From IMG/VR virus record IMGVR_UViG_3300014890_000015, positions 1 to 45,853 of that record: 45,853 nucleotides of DNA. One strand, written 5' to 3'. The position numbers and the translations under genes were made by a program. Within the stretch, counting starts at the first letter, position 1, and the number at the start of each line of letters is the position of its first letter. The notes under the pieces are model-generated. The model did no database searches, was not told where the DNA came from, and worked only from the letters and a program-made list of their open reading frames with translations. Source of the DNA: a virus. Lineage: Duplodnaviria; Heunggongvirae; Uroviricota; Caudoviricetes. Below are positions 1,016 through 44,301 of this stretch, piece after piece.

Positions 1016-2569
1016 TTAAACACTCGCCACGTTATACCAGGTGCCGTTAATCAGTTTCTGAAGCGGTCGATAATACACGCCGCCGATGTTATCTGCCGAA
1101 TTACTTCCGGTTTCCTGCACATTAATACCGGATAACCCGTGGCCTGAAGGTGAGCGAAATGTCCAGGATACTTGGTTACCTCCCGGTTTGTAATACATTT
1201 CGGAACCATAACGCACATCCTGCACGCCGCCATTTCGCTGCTGATAACGGGCATCGAAATTTCCATAGTTTAATGGGGTCATCTGTCCGTTTACAGCGAA
1301 TGTGATACTGCCATCGGTATTTCTCTGGCTGTAAAAATGCCAGCCGGAATCATCACCAAGCTCTGCAACTACAGGTCGGGATGAATTACCCCATAAATTA
1401 AACATTGCGTTTTTCGTGGAGTTGTTGGTGCTGGATAACGTGAATTTTTTAGCATTTCCGGCCTGAATATTTTTTAACGCTATCGCCACACCATTCCGGA
1501 AACGAAATACATGCTGTCCATTCGCATAAACATCCAGAATGCCGTCGCCGTTTTGTTTTATACCTGTATCGTTATCCCCGAGAGCAATTGAGTTTCCGCC
1601 CAGCGCGTTCTTAACGCCGATACCCAGTGCACCATTGACCTGAGAACCACCGCCAACAGACACTTTATGCGACATGGATATCTCTCCTGTCCGCAAATTA
1701 ATGGTGAGCGGACGCAGGGGACCAATATCTCCATTCTCGCCCTGACCTTCACTAGTAGGGATAAGGTGCAGGCACTCTTCAGAACGGCGAAAAATAAGGC
1801 CAAAAGCCTCGTTAAAAATCCTCAATGCATTAACACCACGTATTTTCAGCTCCCCGGTCATCAAATCACCAGATTTTTTTACATATCGCAGATCAAAATC
1901 TGAATAGATATTGCCGGGGTTTATCACACTGAAATAACTTTTCTCGCTATCAAGAAGGCAAATCAAAGGAATACCCTTAATGATATCATTCGCTACCAGC
2001 TCGGACTTGTTCCCCTTATAAAGTGGGAACGTACCAAGAACCTTTCCGCCTAGTGTTAGTTGAAGTGTCGCCGCGTTGGTATTGTTCTGAACGGGGAAAA
2101 CTATAATCGGAGTTCGTAGCGTCCAATCTGTACCTCCATTAACAAAAAACGTCGAGGGAAGTTCCAGCGTCAGTGCGTTTGCAGTGCCACCAGTAACACC
2201 CGCAATATAATGACCGCTCTGAAGCTGCGCTATCTGTACGAAATAGTTTTCCGATCCACGCGTGGCAAAGTTAGCCACAACGTCATTAAGGGACCAACCT
2301 TTCGCGGTTGTTCCTTCCTGCCCACGAATGACTTTCAGCACATCACCGCTTACCGATACCAGGTGACAAATCTCAAATGCAGACTCTTTATTATCGGTAA
2401 GCGTAATTTTTGCATAGACGCGTTGCCCGTTCGATTTATTTTCAAAATCGGCAGAAAGCAATTTTGCAAATTTAGCTCCCGTGCCCGGCATCACCGGAAT
2501 ATCAGTCTGAATCGTCGTAATATCACCAGCCAGTGCTGAAACAACGTTATTTCCGAATCCAAGAATCAT
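1016..2569 (-). CDS. tail fibre protein
   Basis: 517 aa, Gly/Asn/Ser-rich C-terminal half; ATGA overlap with upstream baseplate gene; position before tfa. Confidence 0.55.
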   Translation of the reverse strand: MILGFGNNVVSALAGDITTIQTDIPVMPGTGAKFAKLLSADFENKSNGQRVYAKITLTDNKESAFEICHLVSVSGDVLKVIRGQEGTTAKGWSLNDVVANFATRGSENYFVQIAQLQSGHYIAGVTGGTANALTLELPSTFFVNGGTDWTLRTPIIVFPVQNNTNAATLQLTLGGKVLGTFPLYKGNKSELVANDIIKGIPLICLLDSEKSYFSVINPGNIYSDFDLRYVKKSGDLMTGELKIRGVNALRIFNEAFGLIFRRSEECLHLIPTSEGQGENGDIGPLRPLTINLRTGEISMSHKVSVGGGSQVNGALGIGVKNALGGNSIALGDNDTGIKQNGDGILDVYANGQHVFRFRNGVAIALKNIQAGNAKKFTLSSTNNSTKNAMFNLWGNSSRPVVAELGDDSGWHFYSQRNTDGSITFAVNGQMTPLNYGNFDARYQQRNGGVQDVRYGSEMYYKPGGNQVSWTFRSPSGHGLSGINVQETGSNSADNIGGVYYRPLQKLINGTWYNVASV

Positions 2570-3192: not shown

Positions 3193-4402
3193 ACTTGTTA
3201 ACTTGAACCTGTGATACCACCGTCGAAAAATAGGAATAGGTATCGCCATAAACCAGGCTTGTGTCTTTTGCCGGAGGAACAATATGGCCATTAATGCCAA
3301 TGCTCACACTGATTGTTGAGATCAACGTCGCATCAACCAACAATCTGACGGAACTGGTAAAAATATCCTGGATTCGCAGCAGATTTATCGGGTGTCCGAC
3401 TTCAATAGAATTGATGTAATCAGCAACGTTTTGCTGCACAGCCATAGCAATACCCGCCGGATCAACATAATCATCAGATACAGTGTTCCAGGTGATTAGC
3501 ACCATGACGTTTTGTGATGACGGGATAACGAACGGCACCTGATAAACATCTGGCGAAACGGTTATTGAAACCGTGCGTTTTTCCACTGCCGCACCAGATG
3601 GATTGCTAACATCGTTGGTCAGTTTCGAAATATCCGGTACAGATTTGTAAATAGCATAAGCCACATCATACGGATCACCGCCACCAACAACCGCAACCCA
3701 TTTCCCCAGCGACGACTGCCGGAAAGAAATCAGGTTTTCTCGCACACCGCTTACTGATTTGAGCATCGCTTTAAAGCAATCCGGTGTTCCCTGCACACCA
3801 AACATGCCGGACTCCATGACTTCGGCGCGGTAAGATGCCCACGTTTGCGCCTCCTGACCTGGCATCCCTGCGGTAAGGTTCGTGCATTTTACAGGCTGAT
3901 CTTTGGGTACCGATGTAATGACCTGCGTTACGGTTCCTTCCGGTACAGCCCATGAGCCTGACGTTGTGGCCACACAGTAGACTGGCTCAGTCTGCCCGCT
4001 TTCCGGCACCACCGTATCGCGGGAAACTGCATACTGGTAGTTGCCGTCACCGACAACAAATCCTTTAGGGATACCAAACCCCGGCAACGCCTCAAACACC
4101 ACGTATACCGCCGTATTTGTACTTAATCCCTTCTGTGCTCCATAAATGTTTCCGAGTTGCATCAGTAACGGAATATTTGCGCCGTATGGGCTTACGGAGT
4201 TAATAAGGTCCACCCGCGCCTGGTCTATTAATGCCAGCGCCCCGACTGCCGTGCTGGCAAGGTCAGTAATAAGCCCCGCCGGAAGGTTGGCTGTATATCC
4301 AGGTACTTTTTCAGCAACTCTGATGATAAGATTTGCAAGCAAATCATTGGGTGGCGTAGGCTGCGCCCCCGCACTGGTCATAGTAATTGGTATTTCTGAC
4401 AT
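3176..4402 (-). CDS. baseplate J-like protein
   Basis: 408 aa in conserved V-W-J-I-fibre order of P2/Mu-type baseplates. Confidence 0.5.
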   Translation of the reverse strand: MSEIPITMTSAGAQPTPPNDLLANLIIRVAEKVPGYTANLPAGLITDLASTAVGALALIDQARVDLINSVSPYGANIPLLMQLGNIYGAQKGLSTNTAVYVVFEALPGFGIPKGFVVGDGNYQYAVSRDTVVPESGQTEPVYCVATTSGSWAVPEGTVTQVITSVPKDQPVKCTNLTAGMPGQEAQTWASYRAEVMESGMFGVQGTPDCFKAMLKSVSGVRENLISFRQSSLGKWVAVVGGGDPYDVAYAIYKSVPDISKLTNDVSNPSGAAVEKRTVSITVSPDVYQVPFVIPSSQNVMVLITWNTVSDDYVDPAGIAMAVQQNVADYINSIEVGHPINLLRIQDIFTSSVRLLVDATLISTISVSIGINGHIVPPAKDTSLVYGDTYSYFSTVVSQVQVNKYAISD

Positions 4403-4414
4403 ATTTACTCCATT

Positions 4415-4440
4415 AAAAAACCCGCTTTCGCGGGTTTTTT
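4415..4440. terminator. bidirectional rho-independent terminator-like hairpin (A6-CCCGC-TTTC-GCGGG-T6)
   Basis: Perfect GC stem flanked by A-run and T-run, between cargo gene stop (4443) and J start (4402). Confidence 0.6.
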
Positions 4441-4442
4441 AC

Positions 4443-5561
4443 TTATTCAACCTCTTCTAAACTACTCGCTCTGGACCCTCGGCGGAAATTATCATCATTT
4501 TTAACATACTCGTATGAATCCAGAATCAAACCAGATATGCGAAGTATATCTTCCGGATTAGTTATATGTATCCTTTTACCATCCGTATCAAGTCGAGCTC
4601 GTCTTATTTCATTCAACTGAACTTCACTAAGCGAAATAGGTAAAGTTATAAATGAAGATTTTTTATCATAAAATCTTAACAGCCATCTATTAGTTTTACC
4701 ATTCAATAGTACACCAAAATATGACTCAGTATCTTTATATTCTATATTATCTTCTGTTTGTATGATTTGTTTTACCCTTTCAAATAGCTCCAATTCTTTG
4801 GCTGTGGTTATTATGTTGGGGTTTTCTTCATCAACAATGGCGTTATTAACTTGTGTATCCGTTGCATCATTTTCTTTAGTTTGCTCTACCGGTTGTGTAG
4901 ATAGCCCGGAAACCACCATTGCGCTAACAGCGCGCTCAACGGCCTGTTTAACTAATGGAGTCACGAACTCAAGAAATCTCTGATTAAGTTGTCTCTCAAT
5001 ATTTGAACGACTAGCAACATATCGAACAAACTCCAGATCAACTTCACGAAGACTAGAACTGATTGTTTTAGTAAATGAATTCAAATAAACACTTTCTTCA
5101 GCCAGTGTCCGTAAAGCCTCTGGTTTGAATTTATCATAACGAAAACGAAATAATTGTGTAATATCGGAGTGAGTTAGAGAATCCATTCTTATTTTTAAAA
5201 ACGGCGTTGAATCCATTATGTTTTTTTGTTTCAAATCCGTAAAAAAACGCCATTCAACACCATTTGTAATGGCTGATATAGTAACTTCCGGTGTTGAATT
5301 AAAATATCTTGATAGCTGTGGGCAGTGATTATCAATTTGTTCTGAAAACGATTTCGCCTCAATGAACATCACAGGAACATCATGACAAAATAAAGCGTAA
5401 TCAACCCGTTCATTAGCCTTAACCCCGGGGAAGTCAGCACTATACTCAGCTTTGACTTTTCTTGGATCATACGGAGTAAAACCAAGAATATCTAGTAATG
5501 GCATAATGAGTGCTTGTTTTGTCGTTTCTTCAGTTGTACAAAACACCCCATTTTGCAACAT
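4443..5561 (-). CDS. HsdR_N-like / PD-(D/E)xK nuclease-domain protein; moron, candidate phage-defence or exclusion gene
   Basis: N-terminal ~110 aa shows the HsdR N-terminal nuclease pattern (TEETTKQALIMPLLD..LGF, DYALF, VMFIEAK, Q..RY, TNGVEWRFF); C-terminal ~250 aa unassigned; gene visibly AT-rich versus flanks; own leader upstream and terminator downstream. Confidence 0.6.
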   Translation of the reverse strand: MLQNGVFCTTEETTKQALIMPLLDILGFTPYDPRKVKAEYSADFPGVKANERVDYALFCHDVPVMFIEAKSFSEQIDNHCPQLSRYFNSTPEVTISAITNGVEWRFFTDLKQKNIMDSTPFLKIRMDSLTHSDITQLFRFRYDKFKPEALRTLAEESVYLNSFTKTISSSLREVDLEFVRYVASRSNIERQLNQRFLEFVTPLVKQAVERAVSAMVVSGLSTQPVEQTKENDATDTQVNNAIVDEENPNIITTAKELELFERVKQIIQTEDNIEYKDTESYFGVLLNGKTNRWLLRFYDKKSSFITLPISLSEVQLNEIRRARLDTDGKRIHITNPEDILRISGLILDSYEYVKNDDNFRRGSRASSLEEVE

Positions 5562-5750: not shown

Positions 5751-6098
5751 TCATACCGGCACCTGCGCCCGGTAACTGGTCCCATTAAAAAACACAACAT
5801 CGATGTTATAGGTGGGGTTCGCTGCCCCATCTACCTTTGAAATTGCCAGCGATGCAAAATACCCGGCAAACTGTTGCTGAACCATGTTCACATAGTAGTC
5901 TGGGTAAATCTGCTGCACGATGCACTGCTGCGCAGGAATACCGTAATTCGCGTAAAACGGCGACTCCCCCAATCCCAGCTTTAACGTCTGAATGAGCGTC
6001 GTCAACCAGCCGTAGGAGAAATCACCGTTGGCGTCAGATTCTACTGCAACCCATTTTTTGTTGCCGTTCGCGTCGGTGACGCGGCCCCATGTTCTCAT
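5751..6098 (-). CDS. putative baseplate wedge protein (gpW/gp25-like position)
   Basis: 115 aa from ATG 6098 with GGTGAGGG RBS; position after spike-like gene; assignment by size and synteny only. Confidence 0.35.
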   Translation of the reverse strand: MRTWGRVTDANGNKKWVAVESDANGDFSYGWLTTLIQTLKLGLGESPFYANYGIPAQQCIVQQIYPDYYVNMVQQQFAGYFASLAISKVDGAANPTYNIDVVFFNGTSYRAQVPV

Positions 6099-6105
6099 CG
6101 TGCCC

Positions 6106-6204
6106 TCACCACCATCGGATCTGGCCAACAAAATAACCAGACGCCAGAATCAGAAAGACCAACCAAATAAGCAAAAACTTCCAAGTGGATAATTTTTCAG
6201 CCAT
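6106..6204 (-). CDS. small hydrophobic ORF (32 aa, MAEKLSTWKFLLIWLVFLILASGYFVGQIRWW)
   Basis: ATG preceded by GGGAGA RBS at 8 nt; one predicted TM helix; stop overlaps RBS of downstream gene; absent from ORF track (below 60 aa). Confidence 0.25.
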   Translation of the reverse strand: MAEKLSTWKFLLIWLVFLILASGYFVGQIRWW

Positions 6205-6274
6205 AACTCGAATCTCCCGAATCAGTTTGCTAAAATCAAACACGACTTCTCCTTGCCTTATTCAAGGTCAGAAA

Positions 6275-6307
6275 CAAAAAGCCCCGAACTGTTCCAGCAG
6301 CCGGGGC
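6275..6307 (-). terminator. terminator-like hairpin inside baseplate operon
   Basis: GCCCCG...CGGGGC stem followed by T-rich tract on the minus strand, downstream of spike-like gene. Confidence 0.3.
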
Positions 6308-6349
6308 TTTCGCTTTATGAGATAGAATTTAAAGTGAAATGAACCGGAA

Positions 6350-7063
6350 TTAACCCTGATTTGGTTGCTTCGACGTGATCGTGCTGCCGCCGCTTTGAAC
6401 GCCAGTCACATCGTGGCTGTGGCCGCTGGCACTGACACCTTTTATCACCGCGTCATTTTGCACAGTAAGCGGGCCAATCAGCGAAGCGGTTGTATCCTTC
6501 ATCTGGGCTTTGTCCTGGACGATTGGACCGTTGAGGTGAATTTTCCCGTTCAGGAAAATATCTTCGGCCTCGAGGTAAACAGCTTTCGACTTTTGCCTGA
6601 TTTCTTCCGGTGCCACCGTTACCGAGCTACTGCCGTCCTCTGTTTTGAGGATCGCGCCATCCGGACCGTACAAAACGATTTTTTGCGGATCTTCGTCGGA
6701 CCAGTCCTTGTTTGCCAGTGGCACGAAAAACAGTGGAGTGAGCGACATCGAGTAAGAGAGCGTCGCCATACCGGTTCCCAATCCGGACACACCGCGCAGG
6801 GATACATCAGCGGCAATTGTTACTCCTCGATCGCCCGGCTGTATCGGGTAACGAATATACGGGAATGTGGCGACAGGGATTGTTATCTGCGGAAAGTTGA
6901 TCCCCTCCGGCAGCATATCAAACTGAACTGTCACTATCTGCCCGCTGACACCGACAACATGGCAGGGCAATTCGCGGCCTTTAAGCTCGGCTTGCTGGTT
7001 ACCAGAACTGGTCATCATCTCCGACAGTGTTCGGAGAAACGGTAATTTTTGAGCGTTTGACAT
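6350..7063 (-). CDS. baseplate spike / assembly protein V-like
   Basis: 237 aa, Gly/Ser-rich C-terminus; 1-nt TAATG coupling with upstream gene; position in baseplate module. Confidence 0.45.
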   Translation of the reverse strand: MSNAQKLPFLRTLSEMMTSSGNQQAELKGRELPCHVVGVSGQIVTVQFDMLPEGINFPQITIPVATFPYIRYPIQPGDRGVTIAADVSLRGVSGLGTGMATLSYSMSLTPLFFVPLANKDWSDEDPQKIVLYGPDGAILKTEDGSSSVTVAPEEIRQKSKAVYLEAEDIFLNGKIHLNGPIVQDKAQMKDTTASLIGPLTVQNDAVIKGVSASGHSHDVTGVQSGGSTITSKQPNQG

Positions 7064-8070: not shown

Positions 8071-8336
8071 TACGAAACCTCAAACTGATTCGTACTTTCG
8101 CGAAAAACAAGTTTCCCCGGTGAGCAAGGCAGCGCCAGATTGATGTCGTAACTGTCAGGTGACGCGATCAAAGGCATGTATACAATCACGTCGCCTGAAC
8201 TGTCTTTCAGTTCCAGGTAGTAACGATTTGCATACAGATTAAACGGAACGCGGGCGAATGTTTCATATTCTCCGATTCTGGCCGTGAACTGAAATGGTCC
8301 TCGCCCGTCAGGTTTGAAAGGAATTAACGTTGTCAT
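8070..8336 (-). CDS. small tail protein (88 aa)
   Basis: Coupled ORF in tail module. Confidence 0.4.
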   Translation of the reverse strand: MTTLIPFKPDGRGPFQFTARIGEYETFARVPFNLYANRYYLELKDSSGDVIVYMPLIASPDSYDINLALPCSPGKLVFRESTNQFEVS

Positions 8337-24230: not shown

Positions 24231-24413
24231 TCAGTTCTGCAGGCACTGCCGAACACCGTCGACAATTTCACAGACCTGAGAAGCTGTATCGAAAAGCTGG
24301 CGCGCCTTATCCAGACTGACGCATCCCACCAGAAAAAAAGGCACCAGTATCGCTACCAGTGCCCATTTCGCCGCCGTTCGCGGCATTCTGTGCGTCCAGT
24401 GTTTTCTGCTCAT
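24231..24413 (-). CDS. lysis-associated lipoprotein (possible o-spanin-like)
   Basis: Basic N-region, hydrophobic core and LVGC lipobox; AGGTG RBS; immediately downstream of endolysin. Confidence 0.4.
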   Translation of the reverse strand: MSRKHWTHRMPRTAAKWALVAILVPFFLVGCVSLDKARQLFDTASQVCEIVDGVRQCLQN

Positions 24414-24427
24414 AACACACCTGGTTA

Positions 24428-24811
24428 TCAGCGTTTCAACTGAAAGTGAGGCCCGTCTTTCAGTGTTTTCCAGTCCCCGCCCCATTCGATGGCAGTCCCC
24501 AGCTCTGCGGCAGCCTGCTTAAATGCCTGCGCGATTTTCTCGTACAGAGGCCAGTCCCATGACACCTGGCTGCCAACGTAGGCCACAACATCCACCGCAT
24601 CACCGGTCAGGTGGCGGCTGTTCATGGTCTGGCTCTTACCTTCTGCAACCAGCTGTTTCTGGCGATACTTACTGCGCAGGCCTTCCGTAATACCGAAATC
24701 AACCTCCGTCAGCTCCAGCGCACGGCGAACGACAGCAACCAGCTGTGGTTTGACGCCCTCCAGATTTTTTTCACTGCGACGGCTGAATCTGAATTTACCC
24801 GACATATTCAC
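24428..24811 (-). CDS. endolysin, peptidase M15-type (L-Ala-D-Glu / D-Ala-D-Ala peptidase fold)
   Basis: SRHLTGDAVD and WGGDW...DGPHFQ motifs; ATGA coupling to upstream membrane protein. Confidence 0.65.
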   Translation of the reverse strand: MNMSGKFRFSRRSEKNLEGVKPQLVAVVRRALELTEVDFGITEGLRSKYRQKQLVAEGKSQTMNSRHLTGDAVDVVAYVGSQVSWDWPLYEKIAQAFKQAAAELGTAIEWGGDWKTLKDGPHFQLKR

Positions 24812-25083
24812 CTCAACAATGGAAAGATTTTTGTGACGTTCCCGCGTGCGCGTATTACCAGCACGCAGAACAAGAGATTAAAAAACACTTCCAGCCAGCC
24901 CGTTACTAACGGACGACCGCACAGATAGCTGAGGGGCACAAGGGCATAAAGCAGCATCAGCAGCCAGGCCAGCCATGACATCAGCGGTTTGTGTCTCGAC
25001 TCACCACGACGATAAAAAAAGAGCGTCAGCACGATAACCGTGCTTAACACCACATTCAGTAATCCGGGAAGGTTACTTAACAT
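24808..25083 (-). CDS. small membrane protein (holin/antiholin-like)
   Basis: About 91 aa with two hydrophobic helices; GGAGG RBS; between holin-like gene and endolysin. Confidence 0.4.
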   Translation of the reverse strand: MLSNLPGLLNVVLSTVIVLTLFFYRRGESRHKPLMSWLAWLLMLLYALVPLSYLCGRPLVTGWLEVFFNLLFCVLVIRARGNVTKIFPLLR

Positions 25084-25462
25084 TACCGCCTCCACCCCGC
25101 AGACGGGAGAACAGCCCGGATACCAGCGATGCGATATCCTGCTGGTGGATGAATGAGAGAATCTTCACCGACACCACCGATACCAGTACCGCGCAAAGCG
25201 CGTCGAGAGATGTGCTGTGGAGATTCAGTTTTTCAACCAGGTAAGACGCCATCACATCCGCCCCCAGCACGCCAACAATGAACGACACCAGAAAATGCGC
25301 TGCCACACGCCAGACAGAAATCTGCTGTGGTATCGTGGCCACAAACAGCGCCCCTGCGAATGCACCAAACACAATCCCGAAATCCGTTCCGGTAAACAGC
25401 CCGAATACCGTCGCCCCACCGAGCGCCGCAGCCGTGCCGGAACCGGACAAGGGTTCAGGCAT
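25073..25462 (-). CDS. holin-like membrane protein
   Basis: 130 aa, Gly/Ala-rich TM helices; AGGAGA RBS 6 nt upstream of ATG 25462; first gene of lysis cassette. Confidence 0.45.
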   Translation of the reverse strand: MPEPLSGSGTAAALGGATVFGLFTGTDFGIVFGAFAGALFVATIPQQISVWRVAAHFLVSFIVGVLGADVMASYLVEKLNLHSTSLDALCAVLVSVVSVKILSFIHQQDIASLVSGLFSRLRGGGGNVK

Positions 25463-25778
25463 ACTTTTTCTCCTGTAAATAAAAAAGGGCCTCCAGCGGC
25501 CCGGTAATTGACAACATCCCATCAAAAGCACCCGAAAATGCCTTTTGTGTGACGTTGTCTGATGGAATGAATAAAAAGTTAAGCGGATAAATAAGGGTTA
25601 CCAGAAATTAAGATTAATTTATATGTTTAAACAATATCTTTTTATTAGTAGTATTCATGTGCTCCGGAAGGAGAATGTAATTAAGTCAAACTTCATGGAC
25701 TTTGTCCCGCGGTCTTAATCCGACGACCGCGCTACTTTTTCACCCTCTCGCAAATTGCTATCTAAAGGACTTTGTCCC

Positions 25779-26210: not shown

Positions 26211-26285
<75 letters not shown>

Positions 26286-26288
26286 ATA

Positions 26289-26364
<76 letters not shown>

Positions 26365-29497: not shown

Positions 29498-29653
29498 TTA
29501 CTTCTCAGATACGTAGTCCACGAAGACAGCGACCTCCGTCTGGCCGGTTCGGATTCGTACCTCGCAGAGGTCTTTCCTCGTTACCAGTGCCGTCACTATG
29601 ACGGTTAAACAGATGACGATCAGGGCGATTAACATCGCCTTTTGCTGCTTCAT
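29498..29653 (-). CDS. hok: Hok/Gef-family type I toxin
   Basis: 51 aa MKQQKAMLIALIVICLTVIVTALVTRKDLCEVRIRTGQTEVAVF... ; AAGGAG RBS; upstream in-frame/overlapping leader consistent with mok-like region. Confidence 0.8.
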   Translation of the reverse strand: MKQQKAMLIALIVICLTVIVTALVTRKDLCEVRIRTGQTEVAVFVDYVSEK

Positions 29654-29992
29654 AGCCTGCTTCTCCTTGCCTTTCGGCACGTAAGAGGCTAACCTGATGT
29701 TGTCATGCATAGGGAGCCTCAGATTAATGTTAAGCGTCTTGCCGGACGCGTAATGTTAACTGGGGCTTTTCTCTGCCTGCCTTACAGTGGCATGCCCGAG
29801 GCAGACAGCCTCAAGCACCCGCAGCAATCTTACCGACACCGATAAGAAAACGCTATTTTTTATTGCCAGCACCTTCTATCCAGGCTAATTTATCTGCGTC
29901 AGAACGGCGCAATGCGCTCGCCTGAGATACGTTTACTTGCCATGGTAACAACAGATAACGGCAATTGTTGTTTCTGTTTTGTTTCCTTCAAA

Positions 29993-43925: not shown

Positions 43926-44120
43926 ATGCGGTATGAAAAAGTCAAAGCATGTCCGTTTTGTGGTTGTCCATCAGTAACGGTGAAAGCTATTTCAGGATAT
44001 TACCGCGCGAAGTGTAACGGATGCGAATCCCGAACCGGCTATGGTGGAAGTGAAAAAGAAGCACTCGAACGATGGAATAAACGAACCACTGGAAATAATA
44101 ATGGAGGTGTTCATGTATAA
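43926..44120 (+). CDS. Lar-family restriction alleviation protein
   Basis: MRYEKVKACPFCGC...C..C...ERWNKR zinc-ribbon pattern typical of Lar/RalR. Confidence 0.55.
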   Translation: MRYEKVKACPFCGCPSVTVKAISGYYRAKCNGCESRTGYGGSEKEALERWNKRTTGNNNGGVHV

Positions 44121-44301
44121 AATTACCGCCACTATTGAAAAGGAAGGTGGCACTCCTACTAACTGGACAAGGTACTCAAAAACAAAGTTAACCAAATCGG
44201 AATGCGAAAAAATGCTCTCGGGGAAAAAAGAAGCAGGCGTTTCCAGAGAGCAGAAAGTAAAGCTGATAAATTTTAATTGCGAGAAACTTCTGCCCTCGTG
44301 A
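44113..44301 (+). CDS. hypothetical small protein (62 aa)
   Basis: GGAGGTG RBS before ATG 44113. Confidence 0.4.
   Translation: MYKITATIEKEGGTPTNWTRYSKTKLTKSECEKMLSGKKEAGVSREQKVKLINFNCEKLLPS

Follow-up and report, generated by a model that had tools for sequence, protein, structure and literature searches.

A mobile cassette with a terminator-like hairpin and a small membrane-protein gene between two baseplate genes of a Rac-family prophage

The Gap between the V-like and W-like Genes

The DNA studied here is a window of 45,853 nucleotides (nt) from a virus of the Caudoviricetes (IMG/VR record IMGVR_UViG_3300014890_000015), in which a gap of 251 nt at positions 6099-6349 separates two baseplate genes, a V-like spike gene and a W-like gene, and holds a hairpin followed by a small gene for a predicted membrane peptide, referred to below as the mini-gene. 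All of the genes around this V-W gap lie on the minus strand. The product of the V-like gene gives a weak match to TIGR01644 (phage_P2_V) and its counterpart is annotated as bppV in Escherichia phage Rac-SA53, to which the window is 95% identical over the V-W region. Based on this match and on those to Rfam families at the gathering level, namely RalA (the antitoxin RNA of RalR), sok (the hok/sok type I antitoxin) and two tRNA genes, the window is, as judged from its sequence, a Rac-family lambdoid prophage.

An earlier note on this DNA had singled out a gap of 250 bp as unlike the tight coupling elsewhere in the module, and indeed the 251 nt found here compare with overlaps of 1-4 nt at the neighboring junctions (7063, 8070 and 8333-8336). 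Reading along the minus strand, the gap consists of a spacer of ∼40 nt, the hairpin, a T-tract, a small stem-loop, the Shine-Dalgarno (SD) sequence AAGGAG and a frame of 45 codons that opens with GTG 6243 (Table 1). The stop codon of this frame (TGA, 6108-6106) overlaps the SD sequence of the W-like gene (GAGGG, 6107-6103), as had also been noticed earlier. The G+C fraction of the interval from hairpin to stop is 0.46-0.47 and that of the flanking genes 0.50-0.54, the base composition being one criterion for a moron. According to its annotation Rac-SA53 is lambdoid, possesses a Q antiterminator and has its late genes in one long operon, so that a terminator amid the baseplate genes need not harm the phage.

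Table 1. Coordinates of the features discussed, numbered along the window (aa, amino acids)
Feature	Position	Strand	Basis
V-like baseplate spike gene, 237 aa, upstream neighbor	6350..7063	-	list of open reading frames; stop TAA 6352-6350
G+C-rich hairpin, intrinsic-terminator-like, with U-rich tails on both strands; 5' boundary of the cassette	6277..6311	.	fold and covariation
Sense-strand (late-operon) T-tract of the hairpin, UUUUUGUUUCUG	6269..6280	-	U/C-rich tail in all copies
Small stem-loop CCUUG-N7-CAAGG, 3' arm running into the SD sequence	6251..6267	-	read by eye
SD sequence AAGGAG, 5 nt 5' of GTG 6243	6249..6254	-	SD sequence at the same place in all copies
Mini-gene, 45 codons, MFDFSKLIREIRVMAEKLSTWKFLLIWLVFLILASGYFVGQIRWW (GTG start read as Met)	6106..6243	-	PHROG 6632, homologues, pN/pS, AlphaFold2, hydropathy
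Frame of 32 codons from ATG 6204 (invariant Met14), with GGGAGA 6218-6213; possible second start	6106..6204	-	
W-like baseplate gene, 115 aa, PHROG 7986, downstream neighbor	5751..6098	-	ATG 6098
Predicted extended -10 element TGCTAAAAT, inside codons 3-6	6228..6236	+	TGnTAnnnT conservation
Predicted cis-antisense RNA, ∼74-75 nt	6243..6316	+	promoter-element/hairpin geometry, RNA fold
T-rich plus-strand tail of the hairpin, UUUCGCUUUAU; where the predicted antisense RNA is proposed to end (3')	6308..6318	+	sequence
Rfam gathering-level matches (RalA, sok, two tRNA)	44119-44297, 29648-29820, 26214-26364	-	

A Conserved Gene of 45 Codons

In the earlier note the open reading frame (ORF) in the gap was taken to be 32 codons long, starting at ATG 6204 behind a GGGAGA ribosome-binding site. 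Both the frame and the GGGAGA motif are present, but the gene model is too short, as the frame stays open for a further 13 codons upstream, to GTG 6243, and it is the longer version that is conserved. Residues 1-45 of the product align with profile positions 1-45 of the 45 in PHROG 6632 (E = 2.1e-28), the gene corresponds to that annotated as rac58 in phage Rac-SA53, and distant homologues, which begin with ATG or GTG, have, in front of the hydrophobic helix, a conserved N-terminal motif, x[FI]SK[LI]I[RK]E[LI]R[VIL]M. When 1.84 billion representative proteins were searched with a profile, only 34 relatives came up, all between 32 and 86 residues in length. Because the match to PHROG 6632 covers the full length and the N-terminal motif is kept in distant homologues, the true product is, by comparison of sequences, the 45-residue peptide and not the 32-residue one, with ATG 6204 at most a second start. 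Such a second product of 32 residues is possible since Met14 is invariant in 30 unique ORFs, the GGAG that precedes it is kept in nearly all of them, and one homologue (L101) has GCG where the GTG start stands and so has lost the upstream start. Each of the two candidate starts, GTG 6243 and ATG 6204, is accompanied by its own SD sequence and both are conserved.

A single hydrophobic helix had been claimed for the peptide, and this description holds for the longer product as well. The Kyte-Doolittle mean over 19 residues is 2.0-2.2 for residues 22-42, an AlphaFold2 model (pLDDT 82.6) has helices at residues 4-17 and 20-44 with a break at 18-19, and one transmembrane (TM) segment is predicted at residues 23-42; the C-terminus reads GQIRWW and has a single charged residue. 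The stretch from residue 2 to 21 is amphipathic and has a net charge of +2, so that the N-terminus should be cytoplasmic, according to this prediction.

In order to describe how the gene has evolved we use the proportions of synonymous (pS) and of amino acid-replacing (pN) differences among seven copies, found by protein similarity or gene context. Over codons 22-45 pS is 0.55-1.1, and pN is 0.00-0.18 for close homologues and does not exceed 0.40 across the major groups; for Brenneria versus Symbiopectobacterium the values in these codons are 0.62 (pS) and 0.00 (pN). Conserved residues are encoded by 2-5 different codons, and the frame, its length and the position of its stop are kept from Escherichia to Pantoea and to GC-rich metagenomes. 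A conserved non-coding spacer in relatives, the outcome that the earlier note had named as speaking against its idea, is the opposite of the coding signature seen in these homologues. The comparison thus argues that the mini-gene is a real protein-coding gene under purifying selection, for a predicted single-pass membrane peptide. That the interval is instead a non-coding spacer with a chance ORF has next to no probability left: PGAP leaves the interval unannotated in most E. coli genomes and the peptide has no match in Pfam or NCBIfam (nor in PADLOC), but frame, length and stop would hardly persist over such distances in a chance ORF, nor would synonymous changes be saturated while replacements are few.

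A Cassette That Moves between Late Operons

We fetched 80 related tail modules with the W-like gene. In the more distant relatives (27 loci, with W-like proteins 77-85% identical) the V-W gap is 0-17 nt, which bears out the suggestion of the earlier note that the interval is an accessory insertion. In E. coli-type relatives the gap is 242-1528 nt and the hairpin always comes first. What follows the hairpin is either the 45-residue ORF, an ORF of 53-55 residues (VINFSGGDW...) or one of ∼50 residues (AETTPQGADKAARII...), other cargo being an ORF of ∼35 residues, a Rha/Ant-like gene, or arrays of several kinds of ORF. Taken together, these sequences indicate that the V-W gap is a recombination hot spot. 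The arrays (L107, positions 3640-4860; L228; L266; L250; L273) contain up to 4-5 small TM ORFs of different families, Rha/Ant-like genes and repeated hairpins, with a remnant, ...IAILIWAIRWW and a stop, at the W junction. Since hairpin and ORF units stack at some loci we considered an integron-like cassette array and rejected it, there being no associated integrase and the hairpins having the T-tracts of terminators.

The same unit is found well away from tail genes. A stretch of 181 nt (6106-6286) is ∼84% identical to sequence in Shiga toxin (Stx) prophages, where the unit lies between the endolysin gene and Rz and its ORF stops 1 nt before the Rz start. The combination of hairpin, stem-loop, SD sequence and ORF occurs in addition between a GH19-type endolysin gene and a spanin gene, before another Rz, between Mu-type gp45 and gp46 (in Pantoea) and before a lambda-type J, and in every case the ORF abuts a late gene of the same orientation. 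In the lambdoid slot between R and Rz, alternative alleles begin to differ at the 5' edge of the hairpin, and resemblance to the window ceases at the ORF stop, two points that set the limits of the cassette. On the strength of these junctions the interval from hairpin to stop is, as far as comparison of sequences can tell, an independent mobile cassette inserted in late operons.

Part of the interval is matched in 920 of 5426 complete E. coli genomes (∼17%), mostly by the 181-nt core, which in the PGAP annotation usually carries no feature. Strains UTI89, 042 and 214-4 are among the carriers, as are E. coli SA53 (with Rac-SA53) and lysogens of H-19B and CP-1639. A pattern scan with the 5' element for other attached ORFs gave mostly chance hits, and the 14 loci that were left after filtering all carry the VINFS allele. 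In E. coli O157 Sakai, prophages Sp10 and Sp15 (L309, positions 825-971; L311, positions 1249-1964 and 1964-2235) have in their R-Rz slot an antirepressor gene and a different TM ORF of 48 residues, MGWLMISDKLITLVKSLCVLVGISFLVMLVAIFFSTAWRVLTLSGLVG; this insert also begins with a terminator-like hairpin of its own, and the V-W slot holds cargo of like kinds.

The Hairpin and Other Elements on the Sense Strand

The hairpin plus T-tract that had been pointed out earlier on the coding strand is present and covaries. Read on the minus strand from 6311 to 6277 it runs GAAAGCCCCGGCUG...CAGUUCGGGGCUUUU, followed by UGUUUCUG, with a stem formed by GAAAGCCCCGG and UCGGGGCUUUU plus an inner CUG/CAG. The predicted folding energy is -24.6 kcal/mol (z = -3.06), with 1 of 200 shuffled sequences folding equally well. 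Among 16 diverse copies, both partners have changed in 5 of the 12 stem pairs (in 6 copies, for instance, A-U replaces G-C), with a covariation score that none of 500 shuffles reached, and the aligned stem positions can pair in 97.9% of cases as opposed to 36-60% when the partners are slid. In each of the 13 members found by protein similarity, two GC-rich metagenome copies included, 35-43 nt separate the end of the hairpin core from the start codon. A simple terminator scan flagged only a plus-strand sub-hairpin, the loop and bulge of the full structure being beyond its limits. We conclude from fold and covariation that the hairpin is a conserved, structured, terminator-like element that is predicted to work in both directions.

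The small stem-loop next to the SD sequence varies in sequence and keeps its pairing, as read by eye; it is mostly CCUUG/CAAGG, with CGUUA/UAACG in L102, L106 and L313, CCUG/CAGG in L091 and L103, and GACU/AGUC in Stx phages, and is poorly resolved by MAFFT and RNAalifold. A consensus scan together with inspection by eye gave no sense promoter between hairpin and start (6244-6276) or just upstream. Two loci have unusual surroundings. At L026 (∼2330-2380) an IS66-family transposase gene stands in place of the hairpin, with the SD sequence and the 45-residue ORF intact. Upstream of the distant cassette copy at L313, positions 630-850, there is a near-consensus sigma-70 promoter, TTGACA-17-TAATAT, and two further terminators in the sense orientation within ∼250 nt, which may be a small RNA gene or what is left of other cassettes.

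Constraint in the First Codons and a Predicted Antisense RNA

For the same pairs of sequences, the pS of codons 22-45 exceeds that of codons 2-21 by a factor of 1.5-11, and yet residues 2, 9, 11 and 13 vary. Of the 13 members that the search by protein similarity brought in, 11 have the motif TGnTAnnnT of an extended -10 element at an identical register on the plus strand of this region, and one more, L316, has it 3 nt further downstream. The choice of codons maintains the motif: Ser is always AGC, Ile always ATC and the Phe/Ile/Leu codon always ends in T, and in a GC-rich copy the Arg codon is AGA. An RNA that starts at this element and ends at the hairpin would contain a 5' anti-SD tail, a small stem-loop, an A-rich spacer and a terminator, and would be perfectly complementary to the ribosome-binding site and start region of the ORF. 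In several contexts the cassette is accompanied by the ∼10 nt that lie 5' of the hairpin on the sense strand (ATAAAGCGAA). From this combination we infer that antisense control of the mini-gene is a well motivated hypothesis.

Comparison with Known Systems

The mini-gene belongs to the same protein family as PHROG 6632 and rac58 of Rac-SA53, with a match over the full length; these are database entries, and the cis elements and the distribution are not described in the literature that we searched. The cassette is a phage moron encoding a small, uncharacterized membrane protein. Examples of morons in lambdoid phages are HK97 gp15, in the tail operon, and lambda bor and lom. Morons of this group were reportedly treated by Juhala et al. 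in 2000, as cited in PMC4104026. Like these, the cassette is extra DNA in the late region between genes that are adjacent in related phages, has an intrinsic-terminator-like hairpin, is independently mobile and codes for a membrane protein. A classical moron, however, has a sense promoter upstream and a terminator downstream, whereas the terminator-like hairpin of the cassette precedes the ORF, scan and inspection gave no sense promoter, the next late gene is coupled to the ORF and the only promoter-like element points the opposite way; the classical order of promoter and terminator fits the predicted antisense unit only.

With type I toxin-antitoxin (TA) systems (hok/sok, symE/symR, ibs/sib, shoB/ohsC and hokW-sokW of Sp5) the cassette shares a small hydrophobic single-helix ORF of fewer than 60 residues, a predicted cis-antisense RNA of ∼75 nt that would span the ribosome-binding site and stop at an intrinsic terminator, and carriage by prophages, and the window also contains a genuine sok. 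Unlike them it has no sequence or Rfam relation to a known family and no promoter of its own, and the gene is embedded in a late operon with which it would be co-translated. The sar RNA of phage P22 is a short antisense RNA of ant (Rfam RF00262), and the predicted antisense RNA resembles it in starting inside the 5' end of the gene, in being complementary to the ribosome-binding site and in ending at the upstream intercistronic hairpin. The match of the cassette to the sar family, however, scores 17.7-21.5 bits where the gathering score is 43, and as it occurs on both strands alike it reflects the hairpin only; moreover, sar regulates an antirepressor whereas the cassette gene encodes a membrane peptide.

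The lambda S105/S107 gene is a holin/antiholin gene with dual starts. Likeness to such genes lies in a small membrane protein of the late operon, often in the lysis cassette, with two potential in-frame starts each provided with an SD sequence. In the cassette these starts are 13 codons apart, as opposed to 2 in S105/S107, and the peptide lacks a charged C-terminal tail. Every lysis cassette that we saw already has a holin of its own, and the copy in the window lies in a tail module. We rejected assignment as a holin since the hydrophilic, highly charged C-terminal domain is absent (the GQIRWW end has a single charged residue). A role as an i-spanin or spanin substitute was likewise rejected, given that only ∼5 residues, and no domain long enough to cross the periplasm, follow the TM helix and that Rz is adjacent in the lambdoid copies.

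Proposed Mechanism and Alternatives

Our preferred interpretation, to which we give a little less than an even chance, is that the interval is a mobile cassette with a late-expressed small inner-membrane protein under terminator and antisense control, reminiscent of type I TA systems or of sar. The cassette, a moron, would have been inserted between two baseplate genes that were originally coupled in translation, in a late operon antiterminated by Q. Its product would be an inner-membrane protein of 45 residues with a cytoplasmic amphipathic helix, one TM helix and a short RWW tail. Because it has no sense promoter of its own, the mini-gene would be transcribed only within the late operon, and the placement of its stop against the next ribosome-binding site would restore the delivery of ribosomes to the W-like gene. 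The hairpin would act as a two-way intrinsic terminator. On the sense strand it would block read-through by polymerase that is not antiterminated into the membrane-protein gene, and on the antisense strand it would end an RNA of ∼75 nt that is initiated at ∼6243 from the extended -10 promoter in codons 3-6. This RNA would pair with the SD sequence and start region and so silence the gene in the lysogen, whereas the strong late transcription of lytic growth would overcome both the terminator and the antisense block. The protein would then act on the inner membrane, most likely by helping or timing lysis, although this is the least certain step. A lysis role is suggested by the recurrence of the cassette in several kinds of lysis cassette and by the precedent of hokW-sokW, a type I toxin that aids release of the Sp5 prophage (PMC8621323), and it is the weakest part of the scheme.

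A number of points weigh against this interpretation. If synonymous codons were chosen at random the TGnTAnnnT motif would be kept in at least 8 of 9 lineages with a probability of only ∼1e-7, but this figure applies to a motif that was chosen after inspection of the data and to lineages that share ancestry and are not fully independent. A consensus promoter scan made no call at the antisense element, whose -35 hexamer is poor (3 of 6 positions), and of the two U-tracts in the window the antisense one (UUUCGC) is the weaker. The low pS over the first 20 codons could reflect constraints on initiation from two nested starts, or an mRNA stem, and one covarying pair does link codon 2 with codon 11. 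There is no Rfam family at the gathering level for the cassette or for the predicted RNA. An Hfq-CRAC table of small RNAs of O157 Sakai (PMC4104026, Table S2) has no entry at the element, but the Sakai prophages that we inspected (Sp6, Sp9, Sp10 and Sp15) have ant and the 48-residue allele and do not carry the cassette, so that the table speaks neither for nor against the antisense RNA. Literature searches with peptide strings and with 'Rac-SA53' returned no relevant paper on any member, and the copies in tail modules lie far from the lysis genes, which makes a lysis role no more than a guess. Reviews of phage small RNAs and of spanins mention no ORF or RNA between R and Rz.

Sub-threshold Rfam matches to sar, ohsC and rimP occur on both strands and involve the hairpin only, and we discarded them. 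The small RNAs EcOnc22 (in the I-J gap), EcOnc11/12 (downstream of Rz) and EcOnc33 (inside nanS-p) of PMC4104026 are other elements. EcOnc22, a published Hfq-bound RNA of ∼85 nt, is itself antisense in a gap of a tail operon, lying in the I-J gap of Sp15 (L308, positions 2015-2075, plus strand; Sakai 2902714-2902774) beside a 39-codon ORF and over a terminator hairpin, with an unrelated sequence.

The main rival is a plain moron that makes no antisense RNA, an explanation that we regard as possible and credit with a substantial minority share of the probability. The hairpin would in this case be a sense terminator or insulator, or a stabilizer of mRNA ends, that is read through by Q-modified polymerase, and the 5' constraint would stem from nested starts for products of 45 and 32 residues, akin to holin and antiholin, and from an mRNA fold that sets their ratio. 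The superior T-tract on the sense strand, the lack of a promoter call, the conservation of both pairs of SD sequence and start with an invariant Met14, and the loss of the upstream start in L101 all fit this explanation, as do sense-specific helices with G-U pairs that RNAalifold places around the GTG, one pair of which covaries, U-A to A-U in 5 copies. What it leaves unexplained is that the third position of the Ser and Ile codons is always C and that Arg in the GC-rich copy is AGA, these being the TG positions of the extended -10 element, and that the ∼10 nt beyond the hairpin, the antisense T-tract, travel with the cassette; the helices of the start region, moreover, depend on a single covariation event. 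The substitutions F2I and I11L always occur together, 6238-6240 with 6211-6213 on the minus strand, at the first positions of codons 2 and 11, and correspond to that swap of U-A for A-U in a predicted mRNA stem that would bury the GTG; as a single event this is no more than a hint.

A membrane protein expressed in the lysogen to protect the host, by superinfection exclusion or anti-phage defense, as with the HK97 gp15 moron in the tail operon, would suit a small inner-membrane protein in a moron hot spot of temperate phages, and the alternative small TM ORFs at the same slot suggest diversifying pressure. We nevertheless consider it improbable, as there is no sense promoter from hairpin to start, a terminator lies directly upstream, PADLOC gives no match and the gene always abuts a late gene of the same orientation.

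Finally, the earlier note suggested that the mini-ORF may belong to the same insertion as an AT-rich moron nearby and might act with its nuclease-domain protein. This moron (4443-5561, minus strand, G+C 0.30-0.39) encodes a protein of 372 residues with an HSDR_N domain (type I restriction R, N-terminal), which matches PHROG 4225 ('endonuclease') and has no match in PADLOC. Only proximity speaks for a common origin, with the nuclease gene two genes downstream where the G+C fraction drops to 0.30-0.39, and we find the proposal very hard to maintain: the conserved W-like gene separates the two, the cassette itself is not AT-rich, it occurs at many loci that lack any such nuclease, and Rac-SA53 keeps the mini-gene with a different moron, ant and two ORFs on the opposite strand, in the slot between W and J that the nuclease moron occupies here.

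Taking our preferred interpretation further, one may ask whether the cassettes constitute a new family of type I TA-like modules in phage late operons, with a Q-driven membrane-active protein, silenced by a two-way terminator and by an antisense RNA whose promoter is housed in synonymous sites, that hops from lysis to tail hot spots and back across the Enterobacterales and serves to adjust the time of lysis or to shut out rivals; so broad a claim is tentative and, in our estimate, less likely than not. If the underlying ideas are true, there would be a widespread small membrane protein in the late program of phages, possibly a lysis-timing factor, and such a factor beside the lysis genes of Stx phages could bear on toxin release. 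There would also be a new antisense-controlled module and a clear case of a promoter maintained via synonymous codon choice. The element is matched in ∼17% of complete E. coli genomes, including Stx prophages, is usually skipped by annotation and did not come up in the literature searched. It marks two recombination hot spots, V-W in Rac-type tails and R-Rz in lambdoid lysis cassettes, which swap the same kinds of cargo, small TM ORFs and antirepressor-like genes, and should be of use in prophage annotation and in small-protein discovery.

Lysis Genes of the Window

The lysis cassette of the window itself is at 24231-25531 on the minus strand. No i-spanin partner is evident there, and Rac-SA53 too is without an annotated spanin. 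The cassette has two holin-like ORFs and a peptidase-type endolysin of 127 residues, and then an ORF of 84 residues with a lipobox (LVGC) that resembles a short outer-membrane lipoprotein.

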